Below are positions 6,807 to 32,000 of a stretch of 32,000 bases of DNA, piece by piece. Every line of letters starts with the position of its first letter. Positions within the stretch are counted from its first letter, which is position 1. This stretch comes from Halomicronema hongdechloris C2206 (GTDB lineage Bacteria > Cyanobacteriota > Cyanobacteriia > Phormidesmidales > Phormidesmidaceae). A model generated the notes under the pieces. It saw only the letters and a list, made by a program, of their open reading frames with translations, searched no databases and had not been told where the DNA came from. Where the stretch lies: NCBI RefSeq assembly GCF_002075285.3, contig NZ_CP021983.2:1800001-1832000 (forward strand). The letters run 5' to 3'. The position numbers and the translations under genes were made by a program.

Positions 6807-8228
6807 ATGCATTGCCGCAACGGGGTAGAATCATCTCGGCTGAGTGGCAAGCATAAGGAGAGACCCCTGAAAACCCGTGTTATTCTGGTCCGCCATGGTC
6901 AGAGCAGTTACAATCAGCGGCGGCTAATCCAAGGTCACTGCGATGAGTCGACCTTGACCCCTGAGGGCGTTGCCCAGGCCGATGTAGTCGGGCAAGCCCT
7001 GGCTGGCATTCCCTTTGACGCCATCTGGTCGAGTCCGCTGCAGCGGGCCAAGATGACCACCGAGCGCGTGCTGGCTCAGCTGCGGCAGACCGTCCCAGCC
7101 CTACCTGAGCCTCACTACACCGATGACTTAAAGGAGATCAGCCTGCCCCTGTGGGAAGGCATTCCCTTCACCGAGGCAGAAGCCAATCATCCTGAGGAAT
7201 ATCGAGCCTGGCGGCAGGATCCGGCCAATCTGGTCATGACCATGCCTACCCCCGAGGGAGGCCGCCGCGACTTCTATCCAGTGCGGGCCCTCTATGAGCA
7301 AGCGGCCGCTGGCTGGCAACGCCTATTGGCAGCCCACCCTGGCCAGACCATCTTGGTGGTGGCCCATAGTGCCATCAATCGGGCTCTGATTAGCACCGCC
7401 TTGGGTCTAGGCCCCGAGCGGATGAATAATCTCTATCAGGCCAACTGTGCCATCAATGTGCTCAATGTCCCGGCGGGTGTGGAGCAGCCGGCCCAGCTGG
7501 AGTCGATGAACCTGACTGGGCATCTGGAGCAGCCGCTGCCGCCACTACGCACTAGTCACCGCGGCCCTCGTCTACTGCTAGTGCGCCACGGTGAAACGGA
7601 ATGGAATCGGCAGCAACGGTTTCAGGGGCAGATCGATGTGCCCTTGAATGAGACTGGACGGCGCCAGGGCCAACAGGTGGCCCAATTCTTGCGGGCCCTG
7701 ACGCTAGATGCGGCCTACAGTAGCCCCATGGCCCGTCCGCAGGAAACGGCCGAATTGATTCTGGCCCACCATCCCCAGTTGTCTCTGCAGTTAGTCGAGG
7801 ATCTCAAGGAGATCAGCCACGGCGAGTGGGAAGGCAAATACGAAGCCGAGATCGAGGCAGGCTATCCCGGCATGTTGCAACAGTGGCAGCAAGCCCCAGA
7901 CACGGTGCAGATGCCAGCCGGCGAAAACCTACAGCAGGTATGGCAGCGGGCCATCTCGGCCTGGAAGCAGATTGTGGCCGCCCACAGTGGGGGAGACCGG
8001 GTGCAGACGGTGATGGTGGTGGCCCATGATGCCATCAACAAGGCCATTCTCTGCCATGTGGTGGGCTGGGGACCAGAGGCCTTTTGGCGCTTTAAGCAGG
8101 GCAATGGCGCCGTGAGTGTGATTGACTACCCCAACGGGGTTGATAGCTCCCCGGTGCTCAGCGCCGTTAACATCACCCGCCATCTCTCGGGCAGCGTCTT
8201 GGATAAAACGGCGGCGGGGGCGCTGTGA
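6807..8228 (+). CDS. histidine phosphatase (phosphoglycerate mutase-like) family protein with two tandem catalytic domains
   Basis: There are two RHG motifs: VILVRHGQSSYN near the N-terminus and LLLVRHGETEWN at mid-protein. Each is followed by SSP(L/M)xR and a VVAH(S/D)AINxA motif. The start is uncertain (GTG 6795, ATG 6807, or further downstream after the AAGGAG at about 6855). Confidence 0.85.
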   Translation: MHCRNGVESSRLSGKHKERPLKTRVILVRHGQSSYNQRRLIQGHCDESTLTPEGVAQADVVGQALAGIPFDAIWSSPLQRAKMTTERVLAQLRQTVPALPEPHYTDDLKEISLPLWEGIPFTEAEANHPEEYRAWRQDPANLVMTMPTPEGGRRDFYPVRALYEQAAAGWQRLLAAHPGQTILVVAHSAINRALISTALGLGPERMNNLYQANCAINVLNVPAGVEQPAQLESMNLTGHLEQPLPPLRTSHRGPRLLLVRHGETEWNRQQRFQGQIDVPLNETGRRQGQQVAQFLRALTLDAAYSSPMARPQETAELILAHHPQLSLQLVEDLKEISHGEWEGKYEAEIEAGYPGMLQQWQQAPDTVQMPAGENLQQVWQRAISAWKQIVAAHSGGDRVQTVMVVAHDAINKAILCHVVGWGPEAFWRFKQGNGAVSVIDYPNGVDSSPVLSAVNITRHLSGSVLDKTAAGAL

Positions 8229-9542
8229 GCGGAATCCAATGGATTCAGCAGGCTCGCCTGATCGATCCCCATTACAGCAACAGATCAGGTGGCCGATGTG
8301 TTGGTGGTCGACGGCTATATCCGGGCGATCGCATCGACCCTGGCAGGTAGCGATATTCCGGCGGCGGCGGCGGTCATCCGAGCTCAGGGCCAGATCTTAG
8401 GCTCCAGGGCTAGTCGATCTCTACAGCCATAGCGGTGACCCCGGCCATGGAGGCCCGCGAGAGCTTCGACTCCCTGATGGCGGCGGCCATTGCCGGGGGT
8501 GTCACCCGCCTAGGCCTGCTGCCGACCACCGAGCCACCGGTGGATGATGCGGCCATGGTGCAGCAACTGCTGCACCGTCGCCAGCAGCGCAGTCCAGTAC
8601 CATCCGACGCCCCCACCTCTATCTCTGGGGCGCCTCACCCGTCAGGCTCAGGGCCAGCAGCTGGGCGATCTTGGCGGAACTGGCGGCGGCGGGGGTGGTG
8701 GGCTTTAGTGATGGGCACCCCTGCCCCAGGCTTTACTGTTGCGGCGTCTGCTGGAGTATGGTCAATTTCTGGGGAAGCCGCTGGCTCTGTGGCCATGCGA
8801 TCGCACCCTCAGGGCCGACGGGGTGGTGCGCGACGGCACCGCTGCCCGCAGCTATGGCCTGGTGGGTCAGCCCGCCTGTGTGGAGACCTCGGCCTTAGCG
8901 GCCCTGCTAGAGTGTGTCGCCGACCTGGAGCTGCCCCTGCACCTCATGCGAGTCTCCACTGGCCGCAGTGTGGCCTTAATTCGCCAGGCGAAAGCCGAGG
9001 GGGTTCCCATCACCGCCAGTACCACCTGGCACCATCTGGTCTGCAATAGCGACGCCCTGGGCAGCTACGATCCTTCCCTGCGGCTAGAGCCTCCCCTTGG
9101 CACCCCGGCCGACCAAGCCGCCTTGATAGCCGGGGTGCAGCAGGGCACCATCGATGCCGTCGCCATCGACCACACTCCCTACACCTACGAAGAAAAGACC
9201 GTTGCCTTCAGTGCCGCCCCGGCCGGTGCCATCGGCCTAGAGCTGGCCTTACCGCTGCTGTGGCACTCCCTAGTGGAGACGGGCCACTGGTCTGCCCTCA
9301 CCCTCTGGCGCTGCCTCAGCACTGCCCCGGCCCAGTGCTGGGGCCAACCCCCTGCTACCCTGCAGCGCGACCATGCCGCTGAAATGGTCTTGTTCGATCC
9401 CCAGGCGAGCTGGACCGTAACCGCCCATACCCTCAAGTCTGCCGCCACCAACACTGTCTGGTTGGGGCAAACCATTCGCGGCCAAGTGCAGCGGCTGTGG
9501 GTGCCAGAGGCCCTGATCTCGACAACATACGCGGAGATTTGA
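8225..9542 (+). pseudogene. dihydroorotase-like amidohydrolase (cyanobacterial PyrC-like), disrupted by multiple frameshifts in its 5-prime 520 nt
   Basis: Recognisable peptide segments occur consecutively in different frames. The order is IQWIQQARLIDP, ITATDQVADVLVVDGYIRAI...RAQGQILG, PGLVDLYSHSGDPGH, EARESFDSLMAAAIAGGVTRLGLLPTTEPP, HLYLWGA, LTRQAQGQQLGDL and AELAAAGVVGFSDGHP. After these comes an intact 267-aa C-terminal ORF (8739..9542, ...STTWHHLV...AIDHTPYT...). The codon phase path is 2-0-1-2-1-0-1-0, which is 7 changes. GTG 8225 overlaps the upstream stop (GTGA). Confidence 0.75.
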
Positions 9543-9650
9543 TGGCTGGCTGGTCAGCCATCCCCCGTCATCCTGGCATGGGCAGTTTTGCGGCTCGCAG
9601 CATCAGTAAGAGTTGACACGGGTCCCCGAATTTGTAATCGTAAAGAACGT

Positions 9651-9722
9651 GCGGGTATAGCTCAGCGGTAGAGCGTCACCTTGCCAAGGTGAATGTCGCG
9701 CGTTCGAATCGCGTTACCCGCT
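9651..9722 (+). tRNA. tRNA-Gly (anticodon GCC)
   Basis: A 72-nt cloverleaf was folded by hand. Acceptor stem is GCGGGTA/TACCCGC plus discriminator T. D arm is GCTC-AGCGGTA-GAGC. Anticodon arm is TCACC-TTGCCAA-GGTGA, giving anticodon GCC. Variable loop is ATGTC. T arm is GCGCG-TTCGAAT-CGCGT. CCA is not encoded. Confidence 0.95.
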
Positions 9723-12240
9723 TATTGATTGCAGGCCTGATCCTCGGTTGCGGTTTGCCAGTGGCAGAGCACGCCGTAGAGACCCCAGATGGCCAGGGGG
9801 CGCAAATAGTGGCAGGCACGAAAGGTGCCGAGGGCGGTGATGGCTTCCGGGGTGCGAAATTGCAGGCCGTAGGCATAGATCTGCCGCACCACGGCGGCGG
9901 TAAGGTCTAGGGCTTGATCCACTCGCCCCATCAGGGCAAAGCCAGTGGCTAAGCCGAAGTTGATGCCGGTCCACACTTCCAGCTGGTGGGTGCTGTCGGG
10001 ATCTTCGGGGGAGCCGTCGGGCAAGACGCCGTTGGCAGCGCCGATAACGGTGCCGGGTTGGCCGGAGCGGAAGTTGCCGATTTGGGCCCCAGCAAATTTC
10101 TGGGTTTGGGGTTGGGCCTGGTGAGCGGCGTAGTGGTTGAATTTGAGGAAGCAGGCGTCGTAGATGGCATCTAGGGCCGATTGCAGCTGGGCCTCGGGGA
10201 CCAGGTCGGGCAGCCCCAATAGCCGCGCCCACACCTGGCCGCAGAGCTGATCGGCCATGACCACTTGGGAGCCACTGCCGCTGTCGAGGCGGTAGTAGCG
10301 GCCATTCCAGAGCTGTTGCTGGTAGACTTGGCGACTCTGGGCCAACCAGCACTGGTAGTGCTGTACTTGCTCGGGGGTAGCCGCCGGTGCCCGACCGGCG
10401 GCCATGAGCACCTCGGCCATTGCGATCGCAGATTCCAGGGCGGCCATCCAGAGGCCACCACAGTAGGCACTGACCCCCTTGAGCTGCCAATCATCGAAGG
10501 TTTGGTCGGGGGCGCCACCATTTTCTGGCAGGCCATCGCCGTCCTGGTCGAAGCCCTGTAGATAGGCCAGGGTCGCCGTCACCGCCGGCCAGCACTCCAG
10601 CAAAAAGTCCACATCGGTCTGGCCCGTGAGGCGATAGGCCCGATAGACCTGAATCACAAAATCACTGGGCAGGTCTTTCCACTGGTTACAGTCCTGGTAG
10701 CTGGTGTAGTTGGTCTGCACCCAGGGGTGTTCATTGGGGGCACCCAGATCGTGGGGGGTGGCCCCCCGGGCCTTGCGCATGGCCTGGGGACCCTCGACCC
10801 CGATGGTGGTGTAGTAGCCGATCACCCGCTGGCGGCTGTCTGCCTCGGGGATGGCCCGGGCAAAGGCCCGCAGCACCGCCTTCTCCAGTTCCGGCCATAG
10901 CAGCAGGGTGGCAAAGCCGCCGTAGAGGCGCACATCCAGGCTCTCGTACCAGCAGTAGTCAAAGCACTCCAGCACGGCAAACTGACCCACCGGATCCGCC
11001 GGGCTGGCGGCGGACCAGAGGCTGCCGCCGCTGGTGAGGTCATAGAGTTCATTGAACAGGGCCATCTTCAGCCAGTCCGGTAGCCGGGGCTGGGCCAGGA
11101 TGGGCTGCTGCCAGGCGATGATCTGCTCCTGCCAGCGGGGATACTGGGCCAGGGCGGTCGCGGCCAGGGACCAGGCCTGCTGGCCGTCACGGCCGAAAAA
11201 GTCAGTGTAGCGGCGATGGGCCGTGACGCCAGTGGCAAACTCCGTCACTGGCAGGTCCCAGCTGAGGACGAAGGGAATCTGGCGGGTTTCCCCCGGGGCC
11301 AGGGTAAAATCGCGATGCGATCGCCCCCCCCAGCTGTTCCCCCGCCGCTGCCGGGGTAGGGTCATCGACATTGGCCAAGGCACCATCCCGGCTAAAGGAT
11401 TGCCACAGATCGGCCCCATTCCCTTGGGGATGCCAGCGGCTGTGGTAGAACATCTCGGTCCCGGCAGCTGCCGTTGTCGCTAAGGCCCACTGGCCATCGC
11501 CTTCCGCCGGACGCGGGGATGGCGAGTTCTGGGCCCAGCCCCCTTGCAGCAGACAGCCCCCGCCACTCTCCCTGCTGCACCCAGCGATTATAGTTGCCCT
11601 CACTCTGGCCCAGACGGGGCACATAGTCATAAAAGGGACTGCCATCATCCCGCAACTGCACCTGAGGCGCCTTGCTGGCATTGGTAAACCAGCCCACCAT
11701 GTTCTGCCAGCTCAACATCACACTCAGGGTCAGGGGTCGGTCGGTGGCATTGTGAGCGGTCCAGCAAAACACCGCCACCGGGTAACTGCTTTCTCGATAG
11801 TTATGGGCCCAGATGGGGCTAAACTGCTCGCACCTGAGGGCCGCCTGGAAGACGCCGTCGTAGACATACCAACTGCGGGGGTAGAGGGCGTGGTAGGTGC
11901 CGCCCCCGGGATACCACTGCCACTGGCTGAGGGTGCCATCCGTCGGCCCGACGGTACTCAGAGCATAGGCCTGGGTCTGCCCTCCCCCTTGTTCAAAGAC
12001 ACTGAATTGACAGCCTGGAAAGGCCGCAAACACATGTTCGCCGCCGTCTAGGTGCCAGAGATTGAAGTCCCCCCGGGGAGAGCGACCGATGCAGCCAGCT
12101 CCAAATCCCCTAGGGGTGCCCCATGCCAGGGACCGTCATCTAAGTTGCTGGCATAGCGAACCACATAGTATATGGTCCCACCCCTGGCCGATGGGCCACT
12201 GCCAGGTATAGGGAGGAATCGATGGGATAGATGCTGCCAT
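9722..12240 (-). pseudogene. GBA2-type (bile-acid/glucosylceramide) beta-glucosidase, GH116-like, broken by at least 4 frameshifts in its 5-prime ~920 nt
   Basis: Segments in successive frames are MAASIPSIPPYTWQWPIGQGWDH (ATG 12240), YVVRYASNLDDGPWHGAPLG, GFGAGCIGRSPRGDFNLWHLDGGEHVFAAFPG...NYNRWVQQGEWRG, and CLLQGGW...GDGQWALATT...FYHSRWHPQGNG...GGAIA. These are followed by an intact 3-prime frame TLAPGETRQIPFVLSWDLPVTEF... running to the stop at 9722. One shift sits in a C/G homopolymer at 12107-12114 and another next to a C8 run at 11324-11331. Confidence 0.8.
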
Positions 12241-23305: not shown

Positions 23306-24409
23306 TCAGTGAGTCCCTGGCGGTGCCGACTTAGGCGCCGCCAGGGTGGGCTCTGGCATAGCCGCCTGGCCGAAGGTGCCATTGAGGCCAGCGGCAATCT
23401 GGGCAAACACCTGGCTCACAGAGGCATCGGGCAGTTGTAGCGGCAGCGGGACCCCTGCATCGGCTAAGGCACAAATGCGCGGGTCAAGAGGCACCTGGCC
23501 CCACAGAGGCACCTGCAGATCCCGGGCAATCTGGGCGCCACCACCACTGCCAAAAATCGGAGTCGGGTTGCCGCAGTGGCCACAGAGCAGATAACTCATG
23601 TTTTCCACCAGCCCTAGCACTGGCACCCCCACCTGCCGAAACATGGCGACACTGCGCCGCACATCGGCGACGGCTACTTGCTGGGGCGTCGTCACCATGA
23701 TCACGCCGCAAATGGGGCTCTCCTGCATGATGGTAATCTGGGCATCGCCGGTACCAGGGGGCAAATCAATGAGCAGGTAGTCGAGGTCACCCCACTCGAC
23801 CTCTTGAAGAAACTGGGTCAGGATTTTATGCATCACTGGCCCTCGCCAGGCCAGGGGATGATCCTGCTCCGCCAGCAACCCCACCGACATCAGCTTGATG
23901 CCATGGGCGTCTAGGGGTAGGAACCGCTGGCCGCTGTCGGTCTCTACCACCTGGACACTGGATTGGCCCAGCCCCAACATGTGCGGCACATTGGGACCAT
24001 AAATATCGGCATCCAGTAGGCCCACCTTGGCGCCACTGCGAGTCAGGGCGGCGGCCAGGTTGACGGCGGTGGTTGACTTGCCGACTCCCCCTTTGCCACT
24101 GGAGACAGCCAGGGTAGTGCGGACGCCGGGAATGGTGCATAGCTGAGCGTAGGCCTTCTTGCACCAGGGCAGGGCAGTGAGGGTCTGTTGCACCTGCTGT
24201 TGAAGATGGCGCTGGTGGGTGCCCACATACAGGCGTAGATACACGTAGTCATCTACTATCTGCAGGTTACGCACCATGCCCAGGTTGACTAGGTTGTTGG
24301 GCAGGGTGGGGGCTTGAATGTCTTGCAGCCGGGCGATGACTTCGGCTTTACGAGTGTCGGCTTGGGGGTCAGCGGCGGCCCGATGAAAGGGAGATGAATG
24401 ACTAGGCAT
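23306..24409 (-). CDS. mrp: Mrp/ApbC/NBP35-family Fe-S cluster carrier ATPase with N-terminal DUF59/MIP18 domain
   Basis: ATG 24409 (MPSHSS...). DUF59-like LVNLGMVRNLQIVDDYVYLRL. Deviant Walker A SGKGGVGKSTTAVNLA. DLPPGTGD. Cluster-bridging C-x-x-C (CGHCG). Confidence 0.9.
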   Translation of the reverse strand: MPSHSSPFHRAAADPQADTRKAEVIARLQDIQAPTLPNNLVNLGMVRNLQIVDDYVYLRLYVGTHQRHLQQQVQQTLTALPWCKKAYAQLCTIPGVRTTLAVSSGKGGVGKSTTAVNLAAALTRSGAKVGLLDADIYGPNVPHMLGLGQSSVQVVETDSGQRFLPLDAHGIKLMSVGLLAEQDHPLAWRGPVMHKILTQFLQEVEWGDLDYLLIDLPPGTGDAQITIMQESPICGVIMVTTPQQVAVADVRRSVAMFRQVGVPVLGLVENMSYLLCGHCGNPTPIFGSGGGAQIARDLQVPLWGQVPLDPRICALADAGVPLPLQLPDASVSQVFAQIAAGLNGTFGQAAMPEPTLAAPKSAPPGTH

Positions 24410-24419
24410 TGGGAGTTTC

Positions 24420-25379
24420 TCAGCAAGACGCCTGAATCTTTGCGATCGCACGTTCCGAATAGATGCGCACGTCCATGTCGGGGTCATCTAAGGTTTGCTG
24501 CAGGGCCGGCAGCACACTGGCATCGCCGATATTACCCAGGGCCGTGGCAGCATCGCGACGCACATCGGAATATTCGTCGGAGAGGGCCTTGATTAAGGCC
24601 GGAATCGCCTGAGCATTTGGGATTTGCTGCAGGGCTCGAGCGGTGAACTTGCGCACCTGCCACTCCGCATCGGCCATGGCGGCCATGAGGGCCTCCGTAG
24701 CCGCCGCATCGGCTTGTAATTCTAGAGACTTGGCGGCATTACGACGCACCTGCCAGTCGGCATCCGTCCTCAGCAGCTCACACAGCAGCGGTATTACCCC
24801 CGCATCGCTGAGATGGCCCAGGGTGAGGGCCGTGGCCCGTCGCACACTCTCCTCTGCATCCTTGGCCAAGGCTAGGACTGGTTCACACCGCACCACCTGA
24901 TTCAGGTAGCGCAGGGTGGTCACCGCCGCCTCCCGCAGCGCTGGATTATCAGACTCGAAGAAGGGCAAAATGAACGGCAAGGCTTGGGCATCGTGGATCT
25001 TGCGCAGCAGAATCAACACCCCCAGTTGGGCGTGGACATCGTCTTGCTGCAAGACATCCAACAGCGTCATCAAATCCTGGGTGGACACCAGTTCCTTCAG
25101 AGCCGCCAGCGCCTCGTCTCGCACCTGCTGATGAGGGGCATTGAGGCACTCGATTAGGGGCGGAATCGCCACCGGATTCGCAAGCTCCCACAGGGTGGTG
25201 ACGGCAATGTGCTGCACCCTAGGATGGTCGTCCTGGAGAGCCGCAATCAAGGGCTCGATGGCATCTTCATCCCCCAGGTGTTGCAGGGTTTTGACCGCCA
25301 CCAAACGCTCTTCTACATCGTGCGATCGCAACATCTCAACCCATTGGGCGAGGTCAGGGTCCATATCGGTGGTGTGCAT
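24420..25379 (-). CDS. HEAT-repeat (PBS-lyase HEAT-like) protein
   Basis: 319 aa built of ~30-aa repeats of the type D..VR..A..AL..(I/L)G...A(I/L)P.L...L.D. The stop is 10 nt before the mrp start. Confidence 0.85.
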   Translation of the reverse strand: MHTTDMDPDLAQWVEMLRSHDVEERLVAVKTLQHLGDEDAIEPLIAALQDDHPRVQHIAVTTLWELANPVAIPPLIECLNAPHQQVRDEALAALKELVSTQDLMTLLDVLQQDDVHAQLGVLILLRKIHDAQALPFILPFFESDNPALREAAVTTLRYLNQVVRCEPVLALAKDAEESVRRATALTLGHLSDAGVIPLLCELLRTDADWQVRRNAAKSLELQADAAATEALMAAMADAEWQVRKFTARALQQIPNAQAIPALIKALSDEYSDVRRDAATALGNIGDASVLPALQQTLDDPDMDVRIYSERAIAKIQASC

Positions 25380-25502: not shown

Positions 25503-25730
25503 TCATCGCAGCAGGAACGGAATCTGCACCGTAATGGCATTGGTGGGGCATTCTTTCTCGCAGGGCAGGCAGAACCAGCATTCGTCATATTTCATGTAGG
25601 CCTTGCCGGTGTCTGGATTTTTCACCAGCACATCGAGGGGACAAACCTCAATGCAGGCCACGCACTTCTCCAAGCATTTCGACTCATCGACGATGACGGG
25701 TACATCCACCCGTTGAGTAGTTAAGGCCAT
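25503..25730 (-). CDS. 2x[4Fe-4S] ferredoxin, AprB N-terminal-domain-like (75 aa)
   Basis: The two Cys clusters are CLEKCVACIEVCP and CWFCLPCEKECP. The layout VDESKC...CIEVCPLDVL...(insert)...YDECWFCLPCEKECPTNAIT parallels the ferredoxin domain of APS reductase beta subunits. The C-terminal AprB tail is absent. Confidence 0.8.
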   Translation of the reverse strand: MALTTQRVDVPVIVDESKCLEKCVACIEVCPLDVLVKNPDTGKAYMKYDECWFCLPCEKECPTNAITVQIPFLLR

Positions 25731-25805
25731 AGAAAATGTCCTTCGATAGACTGCAAAACGGCAAAACAGACGATTACGAAAACCCTAGCCGAGTCAATAG
25801 CCTCC

Positions 25806-27512
25806 CTACTGACGCACAGCCACGTCGTAGACCTCCTGGTCTAGGTCGACATTGACGACGTAGGGTTCAACCGGGCGCTTAAACAGCTCCATGGCCCCGA
25901 CCTCGCTCTTTTTCAGGTTGACGTGACAGAACCACTCTTGGTTATTCTTCTCGGGATAGTCGAGCCGGTAGTGATAAAGCCCCCAGCGGCTTTCCTGGCG
26001 AAATAGAGAGGCACGGGCCGCCATTTCGGCACAGTCGCGGATGAAGTGCACCTCCATGCAGCGCATCAACTCGTGGGGATCGCGGGCTCCCATCAGGTTT
26101 AGAGTGTCCTCATAGGCCCTGAACTTCTCCAGGCCGATGTCCATCTTGTAGGGGGATTTGGGCGGTTGCAAATAGTCGTTGACTAGCCGCCGCAGTTTAT
26201 ACTCCATTTGGGTATGGGGCACCCCTTCCGGCTGCTCTAGGGGCCGATAGATGCGGGCTTTTTCGGCGGCTAAAAACGCCTGGTCAGGCTCGACGTGGTC
26301 TAGGGCTTGCCCATACTCCATGGCATTTTCCCCGGCAATGCGGCCATAGACGAAAGCCCCAATCATGTAGTTGTGAGGCACACTGGCCATGTCCCCGGCG
26401 GCATAGAGACCGGGCACAGTGGTTTCGGCCTTGTCATTCACCCACACCCCCGAGGCGCTGTGGCCGCTGCAGAGGCCGATTTCTGAGATGTTCATCTCGA
26501 CCCCGTGGTAGCGGTAGTCTTCCCCGCGGCCGCCGTGGAAGCGTCCCCGACTGGGCCGCTCATTGGACCACAGAATCGACTCGATCTCCGAGATGGTGTC
26601 ATCATCGAGGTGGTACATCTTCAGGTGCACCGGGCCTTTGCCAGAGTTGAGCTCCTTCCACACCTCCAGCATCATCTGGCCGCTCCAGTAATCGCAGCTA
26701 ATGAAGCGGTGCCCTTCGGCATTAGCCGTGTAGGCCCCGAAGGGACTGGCCACATAGGCACAGGCAGGGCCGTTATAGTCTTTGATCAAGGGATTGATCT
26801 GAAAGCATTCGATGTTGGTAAGTTCGGCCCCGGCATGGTAGGCCATGGAGTAGCCGTCACCGGCGTTGGTGGGATTTTCATAGGTGCCGTAGAGATAGCC
26901 AGATGCAGGCAATCCCAGCCGCCCACAGGCCCCAGTGCAGAGCACCACGGCCTTGGCCTGAATCACCACGAAGTCACCGCTGCGGACATCGAAGCCCACG
27001 GCCCCAGTGACTCGGCCGTCCTGCACCATCACCCGGGTGGCCATGACCCGATTGGTCACCTTGACCTGGTGGCGCTTTACTTGGCGGGCCAGAATTTTTT
27101 TCAGGTCTTTGCCTTCCGGCATGGGTAAGACATACTTGCCGACCCGATGCACCTGCTTCAGGTCGTAGTTGCCTTCGTGGTCTTTCTGGAACTTGACGCC
27201 CCAGCTCTCCAACTCTTGGATCACCTCGAAGCCCAGGCGACCAGTTTGGTATACCGCCTTCTGATTTAAGATGCCATCGTTGGCGATGGTGATCTCGCGC
27301 ACGTACTGCTCTGGAGTGGAGTTGCCAGGGATGACGGCGGTGTTGACCCCATCCATCCCCATTGCGATCGCACCGCTGCGGCGAATATTGGCCTTCTCCA
27401 ACACCAGCACCTCGCTCTCGGGACTGGCCTGTTTGGCCTTAATTGCCGCCATGGTTCCAGCGGTACCGCCACCGACTACCAGAAAATCGGTCTTCAAATA
27501 CTGAGTATTCAC
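25806..27512 (-). CDS. FAD flavoprotein of the FrdA/SdhA superfamily, AprA (adenylylsulfate reductase alpha)-like, 568 aa
   Basis: GTG start with a GAGGGAG SD. FAD motif DFLVVGGGTAGTMAA. Blocks that line up by eye with Desulfovibrio AprA are EKANIRRSGAIAMGMDGVN, ELESWGVKF, RVTGAVGFDVRSGDFVVIQAKAVVLCTGACG, NAGDGYSMAYHAGAELTNIE, LCSGHSASGVWVN, TTVPGLYAAGD and HELMRCMEVH...FRQESRWGLYHYRLDYPE...WFCHVNLK. Confidence 0.8.
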   Translation of the reverse strand: MNTQYLKTDFLVVGGGTAGTMAAIKAKQASPESEVLVLEKANIRRSGAIAMGMDGVNTAVIPGNSTPEQYVREITIANDGILNQKAVYQTGRLGFEVIQELESWGVKFQKDHEGNYDLKQVHRVGKYVLPMPEGKDLKKILARQVKRHQVKVTNRVMATRVMVQDGRVTGAVGFDVRSGDFVVIQAKAVVLCTGACGRLGLPASGYLYGTYENPTNAGDGYSMAYHAGAELTNIECFQINPLIKDYNGPACAYVASPFGAYTANAEGHRFISCDYWSGQMMLEVWKELNSGKGPVHLKMYHLDDDTISEIESILWSNERPSRGRFHGGRGEDYRYHGVEMNISEIGLCSGHSASGVWVNDKAETTVPGLYAAGDMASVPHNYMIGAFVYGRIAGENAMEYGQALDHVEPDQAFLAAEKARIYRPLEQPEGVPHTQMEYKLRRLVNDYLQPPKSPYKMDIGLEKFRAYEDTLNLMGARDPHELMRCMEVHFIRDCAEMAARASLFRQESRWGLYHYRLDYPEKNNQEWFCHVNLKKSEVGAMELFKRPVEPYVVNVDLDQEVYDVAVRQ

Positions 27513-27686
27513 TTAAACACTCCCTCAGCGTTTACGGCAGTGAACAACACCAAGTCCAGGTTGAGATCGGGGGTTCAGACCACTAGATCTGGGCTTGGAT
27601 GAGATTTCAATCAACGGGGAAATATGCTTTGCCTGCATCCAGCCCTGGCAGCCCTGGAGAAACAATTCCCATCAAGGTTCTCCTTA

Positions 27687-27726
27687 TTGACTAGAGCTGA
27701 ACATTGACTAGCGCTAAACTGACTAG
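27687..27726. promoter_or_regulatory. three direct repeats of (T)TGACTAG spaced 17 and 15 nt
   Basis: TTGACTAG at 27687-27694 and 27704-27711, and CTGACTAG at 27719-27726, with further TGAC half-sites at about 27731 and 27747. They lie in the divergent aprA-like/LysR intergenic region. Confidence 0.35.
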
Positions 27727-27861
27727 ATTCTGACATCGGAAAAGCGACTGACAAAAACCGCTGTTTCTAATGCCTTTTACAGGATTCTAGAAAATACTCA
27801 ATGAGCCAGCAATGGCGTTTGTAACAGCTGCTACGGTTTCAAGATTCAAGTCTTTTATAGA

Positions 27862-27886
27862 CTCATAAAAAGTTTGAATATATGAG
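27862..27886. promoter_or_regulatory. inverted repeat CTCATA-N13-TATGAG, candidate LysR-type operator
   Basis: Perfect 6-bp arms in AT-rich DNA, ~92 nt upstream of the LysR GTG start. LysR regulators typically bind AT-rich dyads upstream of their own divergently transcribed gene. Confidence 0.35.
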
Positions 27887-27977
27887 CGACCCTGCATCGG
27901 CAAATGATTAATGAATAATTCCTGTAAATCTCACGGCAAATCTTAAGTTGAATGGCCCAATTGATTAGGAGGCTATC

Positions 27978-29987
27978 GTGGAAATTTACCAGCTTAAGGT
28001 GTTTTTAGAAGTGGCACGGTGCCTTAGCTTCACGGAAGCCGCCACTGCTCTAAATTTAACCCAGCCCGCCGTTAGCGCCAAAATCAAGTCTTTAGAAGCT
28101 GATCTGGATACTCCCCTGTTCAATCGCCTAGGGCGGCGAATTGAACTGACTCAGGTGGGGCAGTATCTGTTAGAAGAAGCTCCTTATCTAGTTGACTTAG
28201 AGGCTCAACTCATCGCTGAAATTGAAGATATAAAGCAGGGGAAGTTCAGCACGCTAAAAATTGGCTGCATGGCTGAACTCAATAATCACTGGCTACCCTC
28301 AGTGCTGTTTGAGTATCGTCGGCAATGGCCAAGTGTGCAGACCCGTTGCTGCCAGTTTGAATCCGCAGAAAAGTTATATCGTGCCATCAAAAATGGCGAT
28401 GCCGACCTTGGCTTTTCAGATCTGAGCTTTTCCGAGTTTGACGATCTATCGGAGACGGTGATCGATACCATTCACTACTCCCTGATTGCCTCCAGGAATC
28501 ATCGGCTGGCTCAGCAGCCATGGTTGAGCTTGAAGGAACTGCTGCATCAACCCTGGGTGCTATTACCTGACGGCAGCCCCAGTCGCATCATCTTTGAGAA
28601 ACGCCTGCGGGAGCTGGGCCTAAGCCTGGCTGACTTCACCCAGGTCGAAATTGTCGATGCCCCTGGCTTGGTGCGGACCTATGTGCTGCAGGGGCATTAT
28701 CTTAGCTTTATTGCCGACGTTGACTTGCAAATTGAGCAACAAGCCGGCTTAATTCAGGCCATCGCCCTAGAAGAATTTGCCTTGGGAACACCGCTGTTTC
28801 TGCTGATGTCGAAACGCCTAGCCCGGGCCTTAGCCCAACAGCCTATTCCCTTTCGAGGTCGCCAGGCCCTAGAGCCAATTCGCCAGTTCATCACCCTGCT
28901 GCATCAGCGGCAGTCGCCCCCAGCTCCCCAGCGGCAGACTGCGGCGACAGACTCTACTCCACCGCCTCCGGCCCGGTTTCAAGCCCCCCACTTCATCAGG
29001 CGGCCCCGGTCGAGCCAGCCTGGTGACACCCTCACGCTCACGATTGGCACTCAAAATCGCACTATCCAAACGGTAACGGCGGGGCTAATTATTCAACGGC
29101 TGGGGCTGCTAGAGCACTTCTTACCTCAGCAGGGTCGCTACAGGGGCACCCAGTATCAGATTCGCTGGTGGGACTACACCTCAGGGGCCCCCATTGTGGC
29201 TGGGTTGGCGTCGAAGCAAATTGATATCGGGGTCTTGGGGGACTACCCGCTCCTATTGAGTGCCATGCCCCCCCAGGGGACTGATGCCAACACCTGTCTG
29301 ATTAGCTTCGTGGCTAGTAATCCCGACGGTACCGGCAATGACATCATTGTGCCCCATCGCTCCCACCTTAGCCGTATCGAAGACCTCGAGGGCCGGGTGA
29401 TTGCGGTGCCGTTTAGTTCTGCTGCCCACAGCATGGTGATGCGATCGCTACACCATAAAAATTTGTTGGAGCAGGTTAGGCTCACCTCCATTGACAACCT
29501 CAATCCGCAACGGCTAATTAGCGATTTGGGGCAAGTAGATGGCTATGCCTACTTTGCACCGTTCCATGAAATCGCCAAGCACAAGGGACAGTGTCGTCGA
29601 CTGCTGGAAGACAACTTAGATGGCCTGCCGACCTTCCACGGCATCGTGGTGCAGCAAGAGTTGGCCAGTCAATATCCTGAGGTGGTGGTGGCCTACTTGC
29701 AGGCGTTGCTGGCGGCCCAGTATTGGTATGCCACCACACCAATGGCCGCAACCCTGGTCAGCCGCTGGGTCAATTTAGATGCGGCCATCGTGTCGAAGAC
29801 CTTACTCACCGGCGCCAGTGACTATACCCAGGGCGTGTTTTTCCCAGAGACTCATATCCGTGCTGACTGGGTCAGTGAACATGTCAACCAGCTCCAGCAC
29901 ATTGCCGGCCATGAGTATCTAGGCCAGATGAATCTGAATCACTGGATGCAGCCGGAATTTTTGCAGCGGGCGGTGGCGTCTCTTTAG
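27978..29987 (+). CDS. LysR-family transcriptional regulator fused to a C-terminal SsuA/TauA/NMT1-like solute-binding domain (669 aa)
   Basis: GTG start with a TAGGAGG SD. The wHTH is MEIYQLKVFLEVARCLSFTEAATALNLTQPAVSAKIKSLE. A full LysR effector domain spans residues ~90-295, followed by a Pro/Gln-rich linker (SPPAPQRQTAATDSTPPPPARF). The ~320-aa C-terminal domain has type-2 SBP motifs of the NitT/TauT family: YQIRWWDYTSGAPIVAGLASKQIDIGVLGDYPLL, IEDLEGRVIAVPFSSAAHSMVMRSL and VDGYAYFAPF. There is no signal peptide or TM segment. Confidence 0.85.
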   Translation: MEIYQLKVFLEVARCLSFTEAATALNLTQPAVSAKIKSLEADLDTPLFNRLGRRIELTQVGQYLLEEAPYLVDLEAQLIAEIEDIKQGKFSTLKIGCMAELNNHWLPSVLFEYRRQWPSVQTRCCQFESAEKLYRAIKNGDADLGFSDLSFSEFDDLSETVIDTIHYSLIASRNHRLAQQPWLSLKELLHQPWVLLPDGSPSRIIFEKRLRELGLSLADFTQVEIVDAPGLVRTYVLQGHYLSFIADVDLQIEQQAGLIQAIALEEFALGTPLFLLMSKRLARALAQQPIPFRGRQALEPIRQFITLLHQRQSPPAPQRQTAATDSTPPPPARFQAPHFIRRPRSSQPGDTLTLTIGTQNRTIQTVTAGLIIQRLGLLEHFLPQQGRYRGTQYQIRWWDYTSGAPIVAGLASKQIDIGVLGDYPLLLSAMPPQGTDANTCLISFVASNPDGTGNDIIVPHRSHLSRIEDLEGRVIAVPFSSAAHSMVMRSLHHKNLLEQVRLTSIDNLNPQRLISDLGQVDGYAYFAPFHEIAKHKGQCRRLLEDNLDGLPTFHGIVVQQELASQYPEVVVAYLQALLAAQYWYATTPMAATLVSRWVNLDAAIVSKTLLTGASDYTQGVFFPETHIRADWVSEHVNQLQHIAGHEYLGQMNLNHWMQPEFLQRAVASL

Positions 29988-30799
29988 GCGGCCTCCATGC
30001 TTTTGAGGGTCTCTTCCCGAATGCAGTCAAATACCTGCCGATGCAACGTCATAAAATCAGGGGAGAGGGTGTCATCAAAATGGCGGGGGCGACGCAGATG
30101 AATCGGGATCTCGGCTTTAATATGCCCTGGATGTACTCCCATGATGAAGATGCGATCGCACAGGAAAATTGCCTCCTCAATGTCGTGGGTGACAAAAATC
30201 ACCGTAGTTTTCAAATCACTCCAGATATCGAGCAGTAGCTCCTGCATCATGTGGCGGGTTTGGGCATCGAGGGCGGCAAAGGGCTCATCCATCAACAACA
30301 CCGATGGCGAATTTACCAAAGCCCGGACAATGCTAGCTCGTTGCTGCATTCCCCCCGACAGCTGGGCCGGATAGCTATGGCGATAGCGATAGAGCCCCAC
30401 CCGATTCAGGTAGTCATTGACCAACTCAGTGCGCTCAGCCTTAGCCATGCCACGGATCTTGAGGCCCAACTCAATATTCTGAAACGTCGTTTTCCAGGGC
30501 AACAACGAATACTGCTGGAAGACAAACCCCCGGTCGGCCCCCGGTCGACAAACCGGCTGTTGGTCTACCAAAATGTAGCCCTCCGAGGGCTTGAGAAAAC
30601 CGGCAATGCCATTGAGTAGGGTAGACTTGCCACAGCCAGACGGCCCTAACAAGCAGACAAATTCCCCCGGTTGAATACTGAGGTTAATAGCATCGAGCAC
30701 ATGATTGATGTGTCCCTTCCGTCTGAAGGTGACTGACAGCCCCTCCACTTGCACAGACCCCTTAACACTCTGCGTTTGCTGCAACTGTTGCATCAACAT
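29984..30799 (-). CDS. ABC transporter ATP-binding protein, NitT/TauT (nitrate/sulfonate/bicarbonate) family
   Basis: Walker A GPSGCGKST, Q-loop, signature LSGGMQQR, Walker B LLMDEPFAALD and H-loop THD. The size (271 aa) and sequence style match SsuB/TauB-type ATPases. Confidence 0.9.
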   Translation of the reverse strand: MLMQQLQQTQSVKGSVQVEGLSVTFRRKGHINHVLDAINLSIQPGEFVCLLGPSGCGKSTLLNGIAGFLKPSEGYILVDQQPVCRPGADRGFVFQQYSLLPWKTTFQNIELGLKIRGMAKAERTELVNDYLNRVGLYRYRHSYPAQLSGGMQQRASIVRALVNSPSVLLMDEPFAALDAQTRHMMQELLLDIWSDLKTTVIFVTHDIEEAIFLCDRIFIMGVHPGHIKAEIPIHLRRPRHFDDTLSPDFMTLHRQVFDCIREETLKSMEAA

Positions 30800-30893: not shown

Positions 30894-31754
30894 TCAGGCA
30901 TCTTGCTTTTTAATCACCCGCCAAGGCATGAGGGCAGCCATGGTGCGATTGACAGCCCAAGAGCTGATTGCCCCCATCAAGCCAATCAGCAACATGCCCA
31001 TGACAATCGGTGGATAGTTCGAGGTGACGTAAGATTCCCAGGTGATATAGCCAATGCCGTAACGCCCCGCCAAGATTTCAGCGGTGACTAAACAAAACCA
31101 GGCATTGCCCATGCCGATGGTAAGACCACTGGCGATACTGGGTAGGGAGCCAGGCAAAACAATATCTTTGAAAATATGCCAGGATCTTGCCCCTAAACAC
31201 TGCCCCACCCGAATCAACACCGTGTCACTGAGAATGCTCTCCACCCCACGAATGGTGCTAATCAACACCGGGAAAAACGCCCCCACAAAGGTGATATAAA
31301 CCATGCCACTCTCTGCATTCGGAAACATCAAAATTGCCAGGGGAATCCAGGCCACTGCTGGAATCGGCCGCAGCAGCTCCAACGGAGGCATCAGCAAATC
31401 TTCAACCTTCTCGAACCAGCCCGCCAGCACCCCTAGAATGATGCCCAGGCATGAGGCCACGGCATAGCCAATCATGACCCGCTGAATACTCGAGCGAAAG
31501 TGAACCCACGGGTCAGTGGTGAAAAAGGTCAGCGTGGCTTTCAACACCTGCAGCGGAGACGGTATCAGCTGAAAATTTACGAAAAAGCTGAAGCCGATGT
31601 TGCATAGAAACTGCCAGCCGCCAAAGAAAATCACTAAGGCCAGCAGGCGCCGCGCTGAACGATTGGCAAAAAACAACGCCCTCAAAGCCATGGCCGTTTG
31701 ATAACGCCAGCCCCGCCGCGACTGCCGTGTCGCCTTCGAAGTCATAACTGCCAT
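30894..31754 (-). CDS. ABC transporter permease, NitT/TauT family (SsuC/TauC-like)
   Basis: ATG 31754 is preceded by GGAGAGGAAG. It has six TM segments and an EAA-type loop region (IRGVESILSDTVLIRVGQCLGARSWHIFKDIVLPGSLP). Confidence 0.9.
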   Translation of the reverse strand: MAVMTSKATRQSRRGWRYQTAMALRALFFANRSARRLLALVIFFGGWQFLCNIGFSFFVNFQLIPSPLQVLKATLTFFTTDPWVHFRSSIQRVMIGYAVASCLGIILGVLAGWFEKVEDLLMPPLELLRPIPAVAWIPLAILMFPNAESGMVYITFVGAFFPVLISTIRGVESILSDTVLIRVGQCLGARSWHIFKDIVLPGSLPSIASGLTIGMGNAWFCLVTAEILAGRYGIGYITWESYVTSNYPPIVMGMLLIGLMGAISSWAVNRTMAALMPWRVIKKQDA

Positions 31755-31801
31755 AGGGTCTTCCTCTCCAGCAGAGCACATCCGTTCATCCCAGGGGCAA
31801 C

Positions 31802-31833
31802 GACCTAACGCCGTCCTTAGATAGCGTTAGGTC
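31802..31833. promoter_or_regulatory. perfect 10-bp inverted repeat GACCTAACGC-N12-GCGTTAGGTC upstream of the permease gene
   Basis: Arms at 31802-31811 and 31824-31833, 48-79 nt upstream of the permease ATG. No U-tract follows on the minus strand. Candidate operator, or intercistronic/5-prime-UTR hairpin. Confidence 0.4.
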
Positions 31834-32000
31834 CACCAAGCCGGATGACCATTAGCAGCCACCTTACGCAGTTAGTGAAGTGCCCGTCTGTATTCCATAG
31901 GGCAGTAGTGATGCACATTCTCCGTAGATGGTCGGCTACAGCATTTCCTGGCTGGGTGCTGTAATCAGACTCAATGGCTGACTCAAGTTAGCGCCGACCT

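Follow-up and report, generated by a model that had tools for sequence, protein, structure and literature searches.

The gene pair described here lies in a 32,000-nucleotide (nt) stretch of the genome of the cyanobacterium Halomicronema hongdechloris C2206 (NZ_CP021983.2, positions 1,800,001 to 1,832,000; the whole stretch is referred to as the window). Judging by sequence comparison, it encodes the flavin adenine dinucleotide (FAD) subunit and the 2x[4Fe-4S] subunit of an alpha/beta oxidoreductase that is neither an adenylylsulfate (APS) reductase nor a 3'-phosphoadenylylsulfate (PAPS) reductase. The alpha subunit belongs to protein family NF006131, which the distance tree described below places in a clade of its own, well supported as sister to the APS reductase alpha subunit AprA plus a PAPS reductase (PDB 8A8O). 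Very likely, the pair represents an Apr-like family of its own, with a role in the acquisition or turnover of organosulfur compounds. Given its place in a conserved operon of the sulfonate-uptake type, it probably allows cyanobacteria, and many aerobic bacteria, to draw sulfur from an organosulfur compound via an undescribed route. The enzyme is uncharacterised though very widespread; no published characterisation of the NF006131 family was found in the literature searched, and a Nostoc-feathermoss paper on sulfonate genes makes no mention of it.

Family placement and substrate pocket

The initial annotation had described a 568-amino-acid (aa) and a 75-aa open reading frame (ORF) separated by 75 nt, and the ORF listing of the window contains both as described, on the minus strand, with the flavoprotein gene upstream of the ferredoxin gene. 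All sequence blocks quoted for the larger protein (GGGTAG, RSGAIAMGMDGVN, TGAVGFD..VVLCTGACG, NAGDGYSMAYHAGAEL, SGHSASGVWV and HELMRCMEVH..QESRWGLYHYRLDYPE) were found in its translation, which carries the Pfam domains FAD_binding_2 and Succ_DH_flav_C. The proposed alignment with APS reductase alpha subunits was borne out by HMMER. Residues 3-552 matched the alpha subunit of the PAPS reductase of Methanothermococcus thermolithotrophicus (MtPAPSR; 8a8o_A, E = 2.4e-72), and the AprA proteins of Archaeoglobus fulgidus (1jnr_A, E = 2.2e-45) and Desulfovibrio gigas (3gyx_A, E = 2e-35) were also matched, while matches to succinate dehydrogenase, fumarate reductase and L-aspartate oxidase were far weaker. 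On these alignments, the likeness to the alpha subunits of APS reductase far exceeds what chance would give. As had been noted, the flavoprotein is shorter than AprA (643 and 662 aa) by 75-95 residues; the missing segments (A. fulgidus 79-83, 297-302, 313-318, 341-352, 407-423, 495-508 and 535-539) are mostly absent also from the 571-aa PAPS reductase. The oxygenic phototroph setting likewise held, the closest flavoprotein relatives being cyanobacterial with 92-95% identity.

The ferredoxin contains eight cysteines in two cluster motifs (Cys19/23/26/30 and Cys51/54/57/61), and matched the N-terminal ferredoxin domain of the beta subunit AprB (3gyx_B residues 1-64, E = 2e-9; 1jnr_B residues 10-65, E = 5e-6) as well as the PAPS reductase beta subunit (8a8o_C, E = 1.4e-7). 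Trp52 beside the second motif (ECWFC; ACWEC in D. gigas) is the equivalent of Trp-B48, which relays electrons to FAD. In the alignment to AprB (150-166 aa) the 75-aa protein had no counterpart of the beta-sheet or clamping C-terminal tail segments, in agreement with the initial description of a protein matching the AprB ferredoxin domain only.

Family membership was assessed with NCBIfam release 20 (June 2026), in which NF006131 bears only a superfamily-type name; 'fumarate reductase/succinate dehydrogenase flavoprotein subunit' is a superfamily label only. The flavoprotein scored 1009.3 bits on NF006131 (PRK08275.1; cut-off 587), with residues 1-560 aligned on model positions 4-564 of 577. 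The corresponding values were 197.8 bits on aprA TIGR02061 (cut-off 641.75), 322 bits on the PAPS-reductase family NF005331 (PRK06854.1-2; cut-off 557) and, for the ferredoxin, 34.8 bits on aprB TIGR02060 (cut-off 135.65). NF006131 and NF005331 are separate families, since MtPAPSR scored 886 bits on NF005331 and only 310 on NF006131. Models for Sdh, Frd and NadB gave at best 126-162 bits with cut-offs of 567-933, or 4-5 times below, and the TcuA models gave no more than about 160 bits.

According to a distance-based neighbour-joining tree with 100 bootstraps, the Apr-like sequences were separated from Sdh/Frd/NadB with a support of 100, as were AprA plus PAPS reductase and the query family, each as a group. 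The query family joined a group of 38-44%-identical sequences lacking Arg265 (A. fulgidus AprA numbering, used below for AprA residues) with a support of 96. In P0125, P0126, P0128, P0130, P0133 and P0134 of this second, uncharacterised group (37-42% identical to the query) the position of Arg265 is held by Met, Glu, Leu or Cys. Because P0125 passes the NF006131 cut-off, the model probably lumps more than one specificity. Only two full-length representatives of the family, including a fusion of 925 aa, were left after clustering at 50%, and by sequence the family is unusually tightly conserved.

Pocket residues were compared using an A. fulgidus AprA sequence rebuilt from HMMER alignments, the numbering of which matched the literature at 18 of 18 positions, and the list of functional AprA residues of Meyer & Kuever (PMC2211403). 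Correspondences were taken from MAFFT, in agreement with the HMMER pairwise alignment, and conservation was read over 74 family sequences from several phyla, to which all statements of invariance refer. Asn74 (Asn57 in the flavoprotein) and His398 (His351), beside FAD N5, are kept and invariant; Lys267 and His446 are also kept. Catalytic Arg265 is replaced by Leu242, Trp234, which contacts sulfate or sulfite, by Tyr211, and Tyr235 by Glu212. The adenine clamp is gone, with Arg317 deleted and Leu278 replaced by Ala, and further swaps at the adenosine monophosphate (AMP) site are Val273 to Ala, Gly274 to Cys, Tyr95 to Glu, Glu141 to Lys and Gln145 to Val. Arg260 is replaced by Phe, and Trp144 and Phe261 are replaced as well. 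These replacements are invariant in the family. The 3'-phosphate loop of MtPAPSR (Lys120/Arg121/Ser122) reads Lys/Tyr/Val, with a 5-residue insertion. The flavoprotein no longer has the residues that APS binding requires, and its AMP site is rebuilt on an Apr-like fold.

Conservation over the whole flavoprotein is high, with 231 of the 568 positions at least 97% conserved and 95 of those absent from six AprA and PAPS reductase references. Family-specific invariant pocket residues comprise Glu73, Glu212, Gln238 (= Phe261) and four cysteines. These cysteines (Cys236, Cys251, Cys348 and Cys494) are absent from AprA and PAPS reductase, and three of them flank pocket positions: Cys236 and Cys348 sit on the two strands bearing Gln238 and His351, and Cys251 takes the place of the AMP-contacting Gly274. 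Together these cysteines may constitute a redox pair or a metal site. For the FrdA/SdhA/NadB set (FrdA H232, R287, H355 and R390) and the covalent-FAD His44 no counterpart was found, the aligned positions being Gly47, Asn240, a gap, Ile345 and a gap in an alignment that is approximate at such distance.

These results divide the claims of the initial annotation. Its first reading, a minimal AprBA acting on sulfite or APS, finds no support in view of the TIGR02061 and TIGR02060 scores and the replaced catalytic and AMP residues, while its second, a related flavoenzyme with a new substrate, is supported by the full-length NF006131 membership and the fully supported sister clade. The profile and tree comparison that it suggested left the aprA, aprB and Sdh-type cut-offs unreached, and retained the homology to the Apr branch at 100% bootstrap by neighbour-joining. 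A loss of all AprA substrate-binding residues, named there as evidence against an Apr-like pair, was seen in part: it largely applies to the AMP site, but Asn74 and His398 are kept.

The conserved module and its genomic neighbours

The pair is no cyanobacterial oddity, as a scan of species-representative genomes gave at least 595 matching stretches. The best 120 flavoprotein matches of a protein search were all cyanobacterial (84-95% identity). Locus counts given here refer to 80 related loci from several phyla and to genes within 10 kb of the flavoprotein; three long GC-rich neighbourhood clusters (c16, c17 and c21) were antisense ORF artefacts and were discarded. The best 80 of the at least 595 stretches include Leptolyngbya sp. 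JSC-1 (92% identity), Nodosilinea, many Nostocales, Microcoleus and Pseudanabaena and, at 64-67% identity, Acinetobacter, Paraburkholderia, Herbaspirillum, methanotrophs, Sulfuriferula, Halothiobacillus and Verrucomicrobia. Plasmid or chromid copies occur in rhizobia, Methylocystis, Acidithiobacillus caldus (pTcM1) and Tsukamurella, and the module as a whole spans cyanobacteria (including Prochlorococcus), Proteobacteria, Verrucomicrobia and Actinobacteria.

Two points go beyond the initial annotation, namely the existence of a characterised tail-less AprBA-like enzyme (MtPAPSR, PMC10322725) and the larger conserved operon around the pair. The ferredoxin gene adjoins the flavoprotein gene in 78 of the 80 loci, and a HEAT-repeat protein (77 loci), an SsuA-like solute-binding protein (69) and ATP-binding cassette (ABC) transporter genes (53) recur. 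An Mrp-type Fe-S carrier is present in 39 loci, all cyanobacterial by map inspection, and a DUF971 protein (24 loci) takes its place in proteobacterial loci. A LysR fusion regulator was found in 21 loci, including Prochlorococcus; proteobacteria and actinobacteria use GntR/UTRA regulators instead (27 loci). On the minus strand of the window the order is ABC permease, ABC ATPase, the divergent LysR gene, flavoprotein, ferredoxin, HEAT-repeat protein and Mrp/NBP35 (Table 1). The loci of Leptolyngbya BL0902 and Pseudanabaena ABRG5-3 show the same order, with the addition of a binding protein (about 500 aa) on the upstream side and of TauE/SafE and YeiH on the downstream side, while the order in Acinetobacter and Paraburkholderia is GntR/UTRA, flavoprotein, ferredoxin, solute-binding protein, permease, ATPase, HEAT and DUF971.

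Table 1. Features of the module in the window (positions counted from the first nucleotide of the window)
Feature	Position	Strand	Remarks
Mrp/NBP35 (ApbC-like) Fe-S cluster carrier ATPase	23306..24487	-	Pfam ParA/NUBPL and FeS_assembly_P
319-aa HEAT-repeat protein	24420..25379	-	Pfam HEAT_2, HEAT, HEAT_PBS
Beta subunit, 75-aa 2x[4Fe-4S] ferredoxin	25503..25730	-	counterpart of AprB's ferredoxin domain alone
Alpha subunit, 568-aa FAD flavoprotein, NF006131/PRK08275	25806..27512	-	GTG start; ORF listing, NCBIfam, Pfam and PDB matches
Divergent intergenic region between regulator and flavoprotein, 465 nt	27513..27977		tandem repeats inside
669-aa regulator, complete LysR (helix-turn-helix and LysR_substrate) fused to SsuA/TauA-like solute-binding domain	27978..29987	+	divergent
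ABC transporter ATPase, NitT/TauT type (TauB/SsuB-like)	29984..30799	-	synteny with Leptolyngbya, Pseudanabaena and Prochlorococcus loci
ABC transporter permease	30894..31781	-	Pfam BPD_transp_1

The HEAT-repeat protein is probably a third subunit or obligate partner. In the flavoprotein-HEAT fusion model PRK13800, which is 898 aa long, it aligned to the C-terminal third (positions 610-896, E = 1e-28); the flavoprotein and HEAT parts form one 893-aa polypeptide in Tsukamurella (WP_068738965.1), and such a fusion is found also in P0122. The Mrp protein scored 300 bits on the ApbC model, below the cut-off of 348. The true Mrp start lies probably downstream of 24487, since the ORF as listed shares 68 nt with the 3' end of the HEAT gene, compared with an overlap of 8 nt at the annotated Leptolyngbya locus. 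The NCBIfam name 'SaoA', attached to an ATPase match, was also followed, and led only to unrelated staphylococcal and streptococcal genes.

Evidence on the transported compound comes from the transporter and the regulator. Three solute-binding proteins, from three phyla, had their best family matches in the SsuA family and TauA, and their best PDB matches were Escherichia coli SsuA and TauA (SsuA 2x26, E = 2e-16). In the window no remnant of a binding protein was found in 31782-32000; the gene, which lies upstream of the permease in relatives, would here fall past the window end. The architecture of the LysR fusion is unusual, in that a binding domain of the periplasmic SsuA/TauA-like type is present as a cytoplasmic copy. 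The regulator probably senses the transported compound, because its C-terminal domain (residues 351-605) resembles the transporter's binding protein, being 35% identical (E = 5e-56) to that of the Leptolyngbya BL0902 locus.

The intergenic region upstream of the regulator contains two 17-nt tandem direct repeats at 27686-27719 (ATTGACTAGAGCTGAAC and ATTGACTAGCGCTAAAC) and a third, partial TGACTAG copy, which extends the stretch to 27735. These were considered as regulator boxes and rejected, as neither TGACTAG nor the 17-nt repeats occur in 20 related cyanobacterial intergenic regions. Rfam gave no RNA element in the 465 nt, and a promoter and terminator scan gave matches at or below shuffle expectation.

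At least one further sulfur-acquisition gene was found in 40 of the 80 loci, a raw count uncorrected for genome-wide background. SsuD, CysW, Sbp and a family 2A encapsulin with cysteine desulfurase cargo exceeded NCBIfam cut-offs; weaker or cluster-based neighbours were TauD-like and SfnB/DszC-like proteins, O-acetylhomoserine sulfhydrylase, MetX, rhodanese, a CysE-like protein, TauE/SafE, YeiH, GNAT and amidase. Genes for sat, qmoABC, aprM, APS kinase and the phosphatase of 3'-phosphoadenosine 5'-phosphate (PAP) were absent from the annotated window ORFs and from the recurrent clusters of the 80 loci. The encapsulin operon (CysE-like protein, SrpI-type shell and cysteine desulfurase cargo) lies a few kb from the module in L080, L087 (Acinetobacter) and L089, with rhodanese clustered only in L080; L036, L045 and L052 have the cargo gene only. 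Synechococcus elongatus induces the encapsulin system when starved of sulfur (PMC8049743), and its adjacency here links two sulfur-related systems of poorly understood function.

Several versions of the module depart from the common arrangement. Two single-cell genomes, Prochlorococcus sp. AG-412-J13 (L053) and AG-469-F22 (L054), carry it with a flavoprotein 76% identical to the query, in the order solute-binding protein, amidase, permease, solute-binding protein, ATPase, permease, YeiH, LysR fusion, flavoprotein and ferredoxin; L053 adds HEAT and Mrp, and the L054 contig stops after the ferredoxin. Its presence in streamlined Prochlorococcus genomes is unexpected. In Nostoc edaphicum pNe_5 (L006, 11707-14888), and similarly in L022, L034, L039 and L041, extra genes lie between flavoprotein and ferredoxin. 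This Nostocales insert holds up to five genes, i.e. two HAD hydrolases, an S-adenosylmethionine methyltransferase, a GNAT and a VOC/FosA-like protein, and SsuD, MetX and O-acetylhomoserine sulfhydrylase are encoded near these loci. The A. caldus pTcM1 locus (L005, 9951-13884) has no ABC transporter and carries instead FdxA and a 1153-aa FAD oxidoreductase resembling glutamate synthase beta subunit and 2-polyprenylphenol hydroxylase. Relatives were found in 4-6 of the 80 loci, and a role of FdxA and the oxidoreductase as a dedicated NAD(P)H-to-ferredoxin electron supply is plausible.

Outside the module, the genes of the window are unremarkable chromosomal ones (PdxA, a glycosyltransferase, a SpoIID-domain protein and a CAP-domain protein). 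The sole Rfam match in the window is a tRNA-Gly(GCC) at 9651-9722 (+), which abuts the end of a GH116-family glycosidase gene, and G+C is 0.64 in 8000-12000 and 0.52-0.60 elsewhere in the window.

Proposed reaction and competing explanations

The mechanism put forward, with a likelihood just short of even, is that of a ferredoxin-driven reductase freeing sulfite from an organosulfonate taken up by the cell. The imported organosulfur compound would most likely be a sulfonate, and may be an aminosulfonate. Low-potential electrons from ferredoxin in cyanobacteria, or from the NAD(P)H-type oxidoreductase and FdxA in the A. caldus version, would pass via the beta-subunit clusters and Trp to FAD. 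As in APS reductase, N5 of the reduced FAD would attack the sulfo group, and the sulfite set free would be assimilated with no need for ATP to activate sulfate. A structural role would fall to the HEAT protein, and maturation of the clusters in an aerobic cell to Mrp or DUF971. The reductive direction is favoured because the nearest characterised enzyme, MtPAPSR, is active only reductively in vitro (PMC10322725) and because the A. caldus locus supplies FdxA and the 1153-aa oxidoreductase. That the substrate bears an amine is hinted at by the acidic residues of the pocket, along with the GNAT and amidase genes found repeatedly around the module. A broader proposal, namely that NF006131 would constitute a new class of O2-independent, ferredoxin- or NAD(P)H-driven sulfite-releasing reductases with FAD-N5 cleavage of a C-S or O-S bond, an obligate HEAT subunit and a four-Cys active site (a redox thiol pair or an extra metal site), is rather doubtful.

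Several observations weigh against an organosulfonate reductase. The solute-binding proteins scored below the SsuA and TauA cut-offs, which leaves room for a ligand other than a sulfonate. In 40 of the 80 loci the 10-kb surroundings show no further recognised sulfur gene, and a transporter is missing next to the A. caldus and Mesorhizobium pMLa versions. Regulation in proteobacteria and actinobacteria is by GntR/UTRA proteins, which are typical of substrate-induced catabolism, as opposed to CysB/Cbl-type sulfur-starvation control, and the annotation of the neighbouring TauE/SafE and YeiH as exporters of sulfite or sulfate suits dissimilation no less than assimilation. In the pocket, the sulfo-polarising Arg of AprA is lost and acidic residues are gained, which is awkward for an anionic sulfo group at N5. 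An AlphaFold2 model of the flavoprotein (30 homologues, all at least 84% identical) was of low confidence, with a mean predicted local distance difference test (pLDDT) of 48.8 and a predicted template modelling score (pTM) of 0.58. No activity, expression or mutant data were found for any family member.

An oxidative role is unlikely but stands ahead of the other alternatives. Here the enzyme would oxidise a C-N or C-C bond of the imported compound (e.g. an aminosulfonate or amino acid analogue) and pass electrons out through ferredoxin, like L-aspartate oxidase or succinate dehydrogenase, with desulfonation occurring elsewhere or spontaneously. The superfamily holds such dehydrogenases, the invariant Glu73 and Glu212 suit an ammonium group, amidase occurs in 12 of the 80 loci and GNAT within Nostoc operons, and the GntR/UTRA regulators are those of catabolic operons. 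The His/Arg set of FrdA/SdhA/NadB, however, has no counterpart at the aligned positions, and the module encodes no membrane anchor, electron-transferring flavoprotein or quinone-linked acceptor. Furthermore, the low-potential 2x[4Fe-4S] partners and the A. caldus NAD(P)H-type oxidoreductase with FdxA look like electron supply, and the closest characterised relative is without reverse activity.

A function outside sulfur metabolism is somewhat less likely again. The NitT/TauT transporter family also carries nitrate, cyanate, bicarbonate and pyrimidine precursors, and the importer could bring in another small anion or a heterocycle to be reduced or oxidised by the flavoenzyme, the sulfur neighbours being coincidental or a matter of island structure. 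This breadth of ligands, the sub-threshold solute-binding protein scores, the half of the loci with no other sulfur gene nearby and the many copies on plasmids or chromids amid unrelated genes are consistent with such a role. On the other hand, for the binding proteins of three phyla every best family or PDB match is SsuA or TauA, sulfur genes turn up repeatedly beside the module, and independently so, in cyanobacteria, Verrucomicrobia, and beta- and gamma-proteobacteria, and the only characterised relatives of the enzyme act on sulfo groups.

It is improbable that the enzyme handles sulfite with a co-substrate other than AMP, capturing or detoxifying the sulfite released by SsuD/TauD-type neighbours via an FAD N5-sulfite adduct, with TauE or YeiH exporting the product. 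The kept Asn74 and His398 hold the sulfite adduct in AprA, and several cyanobacterial loci have TauE/SafE and YeiH immediately downstream, but two other residues that stabilise the adduct, Arg265 and Trp234, are lost, the dedicated importer and the binding-protein domain of the regulator would be left without a role, and cyanobacteria already possess ferredoxin-sulfite reductase for sulfite. A genuine minimal APS/PAPS reductase or MtPAPSR orthologue, to which the fold, the cofactors, the tail-less beta subunit and the deletions in common with MtPAPSR would point, deserves very little credence, as the proteins fall under the aprA, aprB and PRK06854.1-2 cut-offs, Arg265, Trp234, Arg317, Leu278, Glu141, Gln145, Val273 and Gly274 are invariantly replaced or deleted in the 74 sequences, the Lys120/Arg121/Ser122 loop reads Lys/Tyr/Val, and sat, APS kinase, PAP phosphatase, qmo and aprM are missing from the window and the sampled loci.

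To our knowledge, the characterised aerobic routes from organosulfonate to sulfite all use O2-dependent oxygenases (SsuD, TauD, MsuD and SfnG) or substrate-specific lyases. If true, release of sulfite by the NF006131 enzyme would be a reductive way of acquiring sulfur for phototrophs and for common soil, water and clinical bacteria, and a previously unknown, ATP-saving sulfur assimilation route in cyanobacteria (including some Prochlorococcus), Acinetobacter, Burkholderiales, rhizobia, methanotrophs and actinobacteria. Genome-based prediction of sulfonate use would change, including for Prochlorococcus and moss- or lichen-associated Nostoc. The misleading fumarate reductase/succinate dehydrogenase annotation would be corrected on thousands of genes, which metagenome pipelines may call aprA. 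The family would furthermore offer a natural experiment on the APS reductase scaffold re-tooled for another substrate.

Comparison with known systems

The closest characterised system is the tail-less, AprBA-like PAPS reductase of M. thermolithotrophicus (PDB 8A8O; Jespersen & Wagner 2023, PMC10322725). Tail-less 'AprAB-like' complexes of Clostridia and archaea have been noted in anaerobes (PMC8477390); by its placement, the window family is a sister of these complexes and not a member. With MtPAPSR it has in common full-length homology, an alpha subunit of about 570 aa without the same AprA insertions, a small beta subunit that extends barely beyond the ferredoxin domain and has no clamping tail, FAD and two [4Fe-4S] clusters with Asn and His by N5, and a soluble character with no Qmo or AprM partner in an assimilatory gene context. 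The two differ in that identity is about 30% and each falls below the cut-off of the other's family (310-322 bits), and in the pocket, where Arg237 of MtPAPSR is replaced by Leu, Trp206 by Tyr and Tyr207 by Glu, and Arg276 (= A. fulgidus Arg317) is deleted. The gene context also differs, consisting of a sulfonate-type importer, HEAT protein and Fe-S carrier as against sat, APS kinase and PAP phosphatase for MtPAPSR, and the hosts of the window family are aerobes.

Compared with AprBA (A. fulgidus 1JNR/2FJA and D. gigas 3GYX), the pair belongs to the same superfamily branch and shows the same order of FAD-binding, capping and helical domains, with Asn74, His398, Lys267 and His446 kept and a beta ferredoxin domain bearing the Trp-B48 equivalent. 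Identity to AprA is only 31%, however, the hydrophobic AMP channel, Arg265, Trp234 and the Arg317/Leu278 clamp are replaced, the beta subunit is without the beta-sheet and tail, and linkage to sat, qmo or aprM is missing. The PRK13800-type actinobacterial fusions are far closer: their flavoprotein part is 59-61% identical with the same signature residues, and they occupy the same operon (GntR, ferredoxin and SsuA-like ABC transporter in Tsukamurella), the difference being that in the window the HEAT part is a separate gene downstream of the ferredoxin.

Flavoproteins of the Sdh/Frd/L-aspartate oxidase group have the FAD_binding_2 and Succ_DH_flav_C domains and an Fe-S partner protein in common with the pair, but the pair falls in a separate clade and has no covalent-FAD His. 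The SsuD/SsuE, TauD and SfnB/DszC-like systems, which are encoded beside the module in several cyanobacterial loci, use the same kind of SsuA-type importers and have the same presumed purpose, the release of sulfite from organosulfonates. In contrast to these O2-dependent enzymes of unrelated folds, the module described here has reductive, ferredoxin-linked cofactors.

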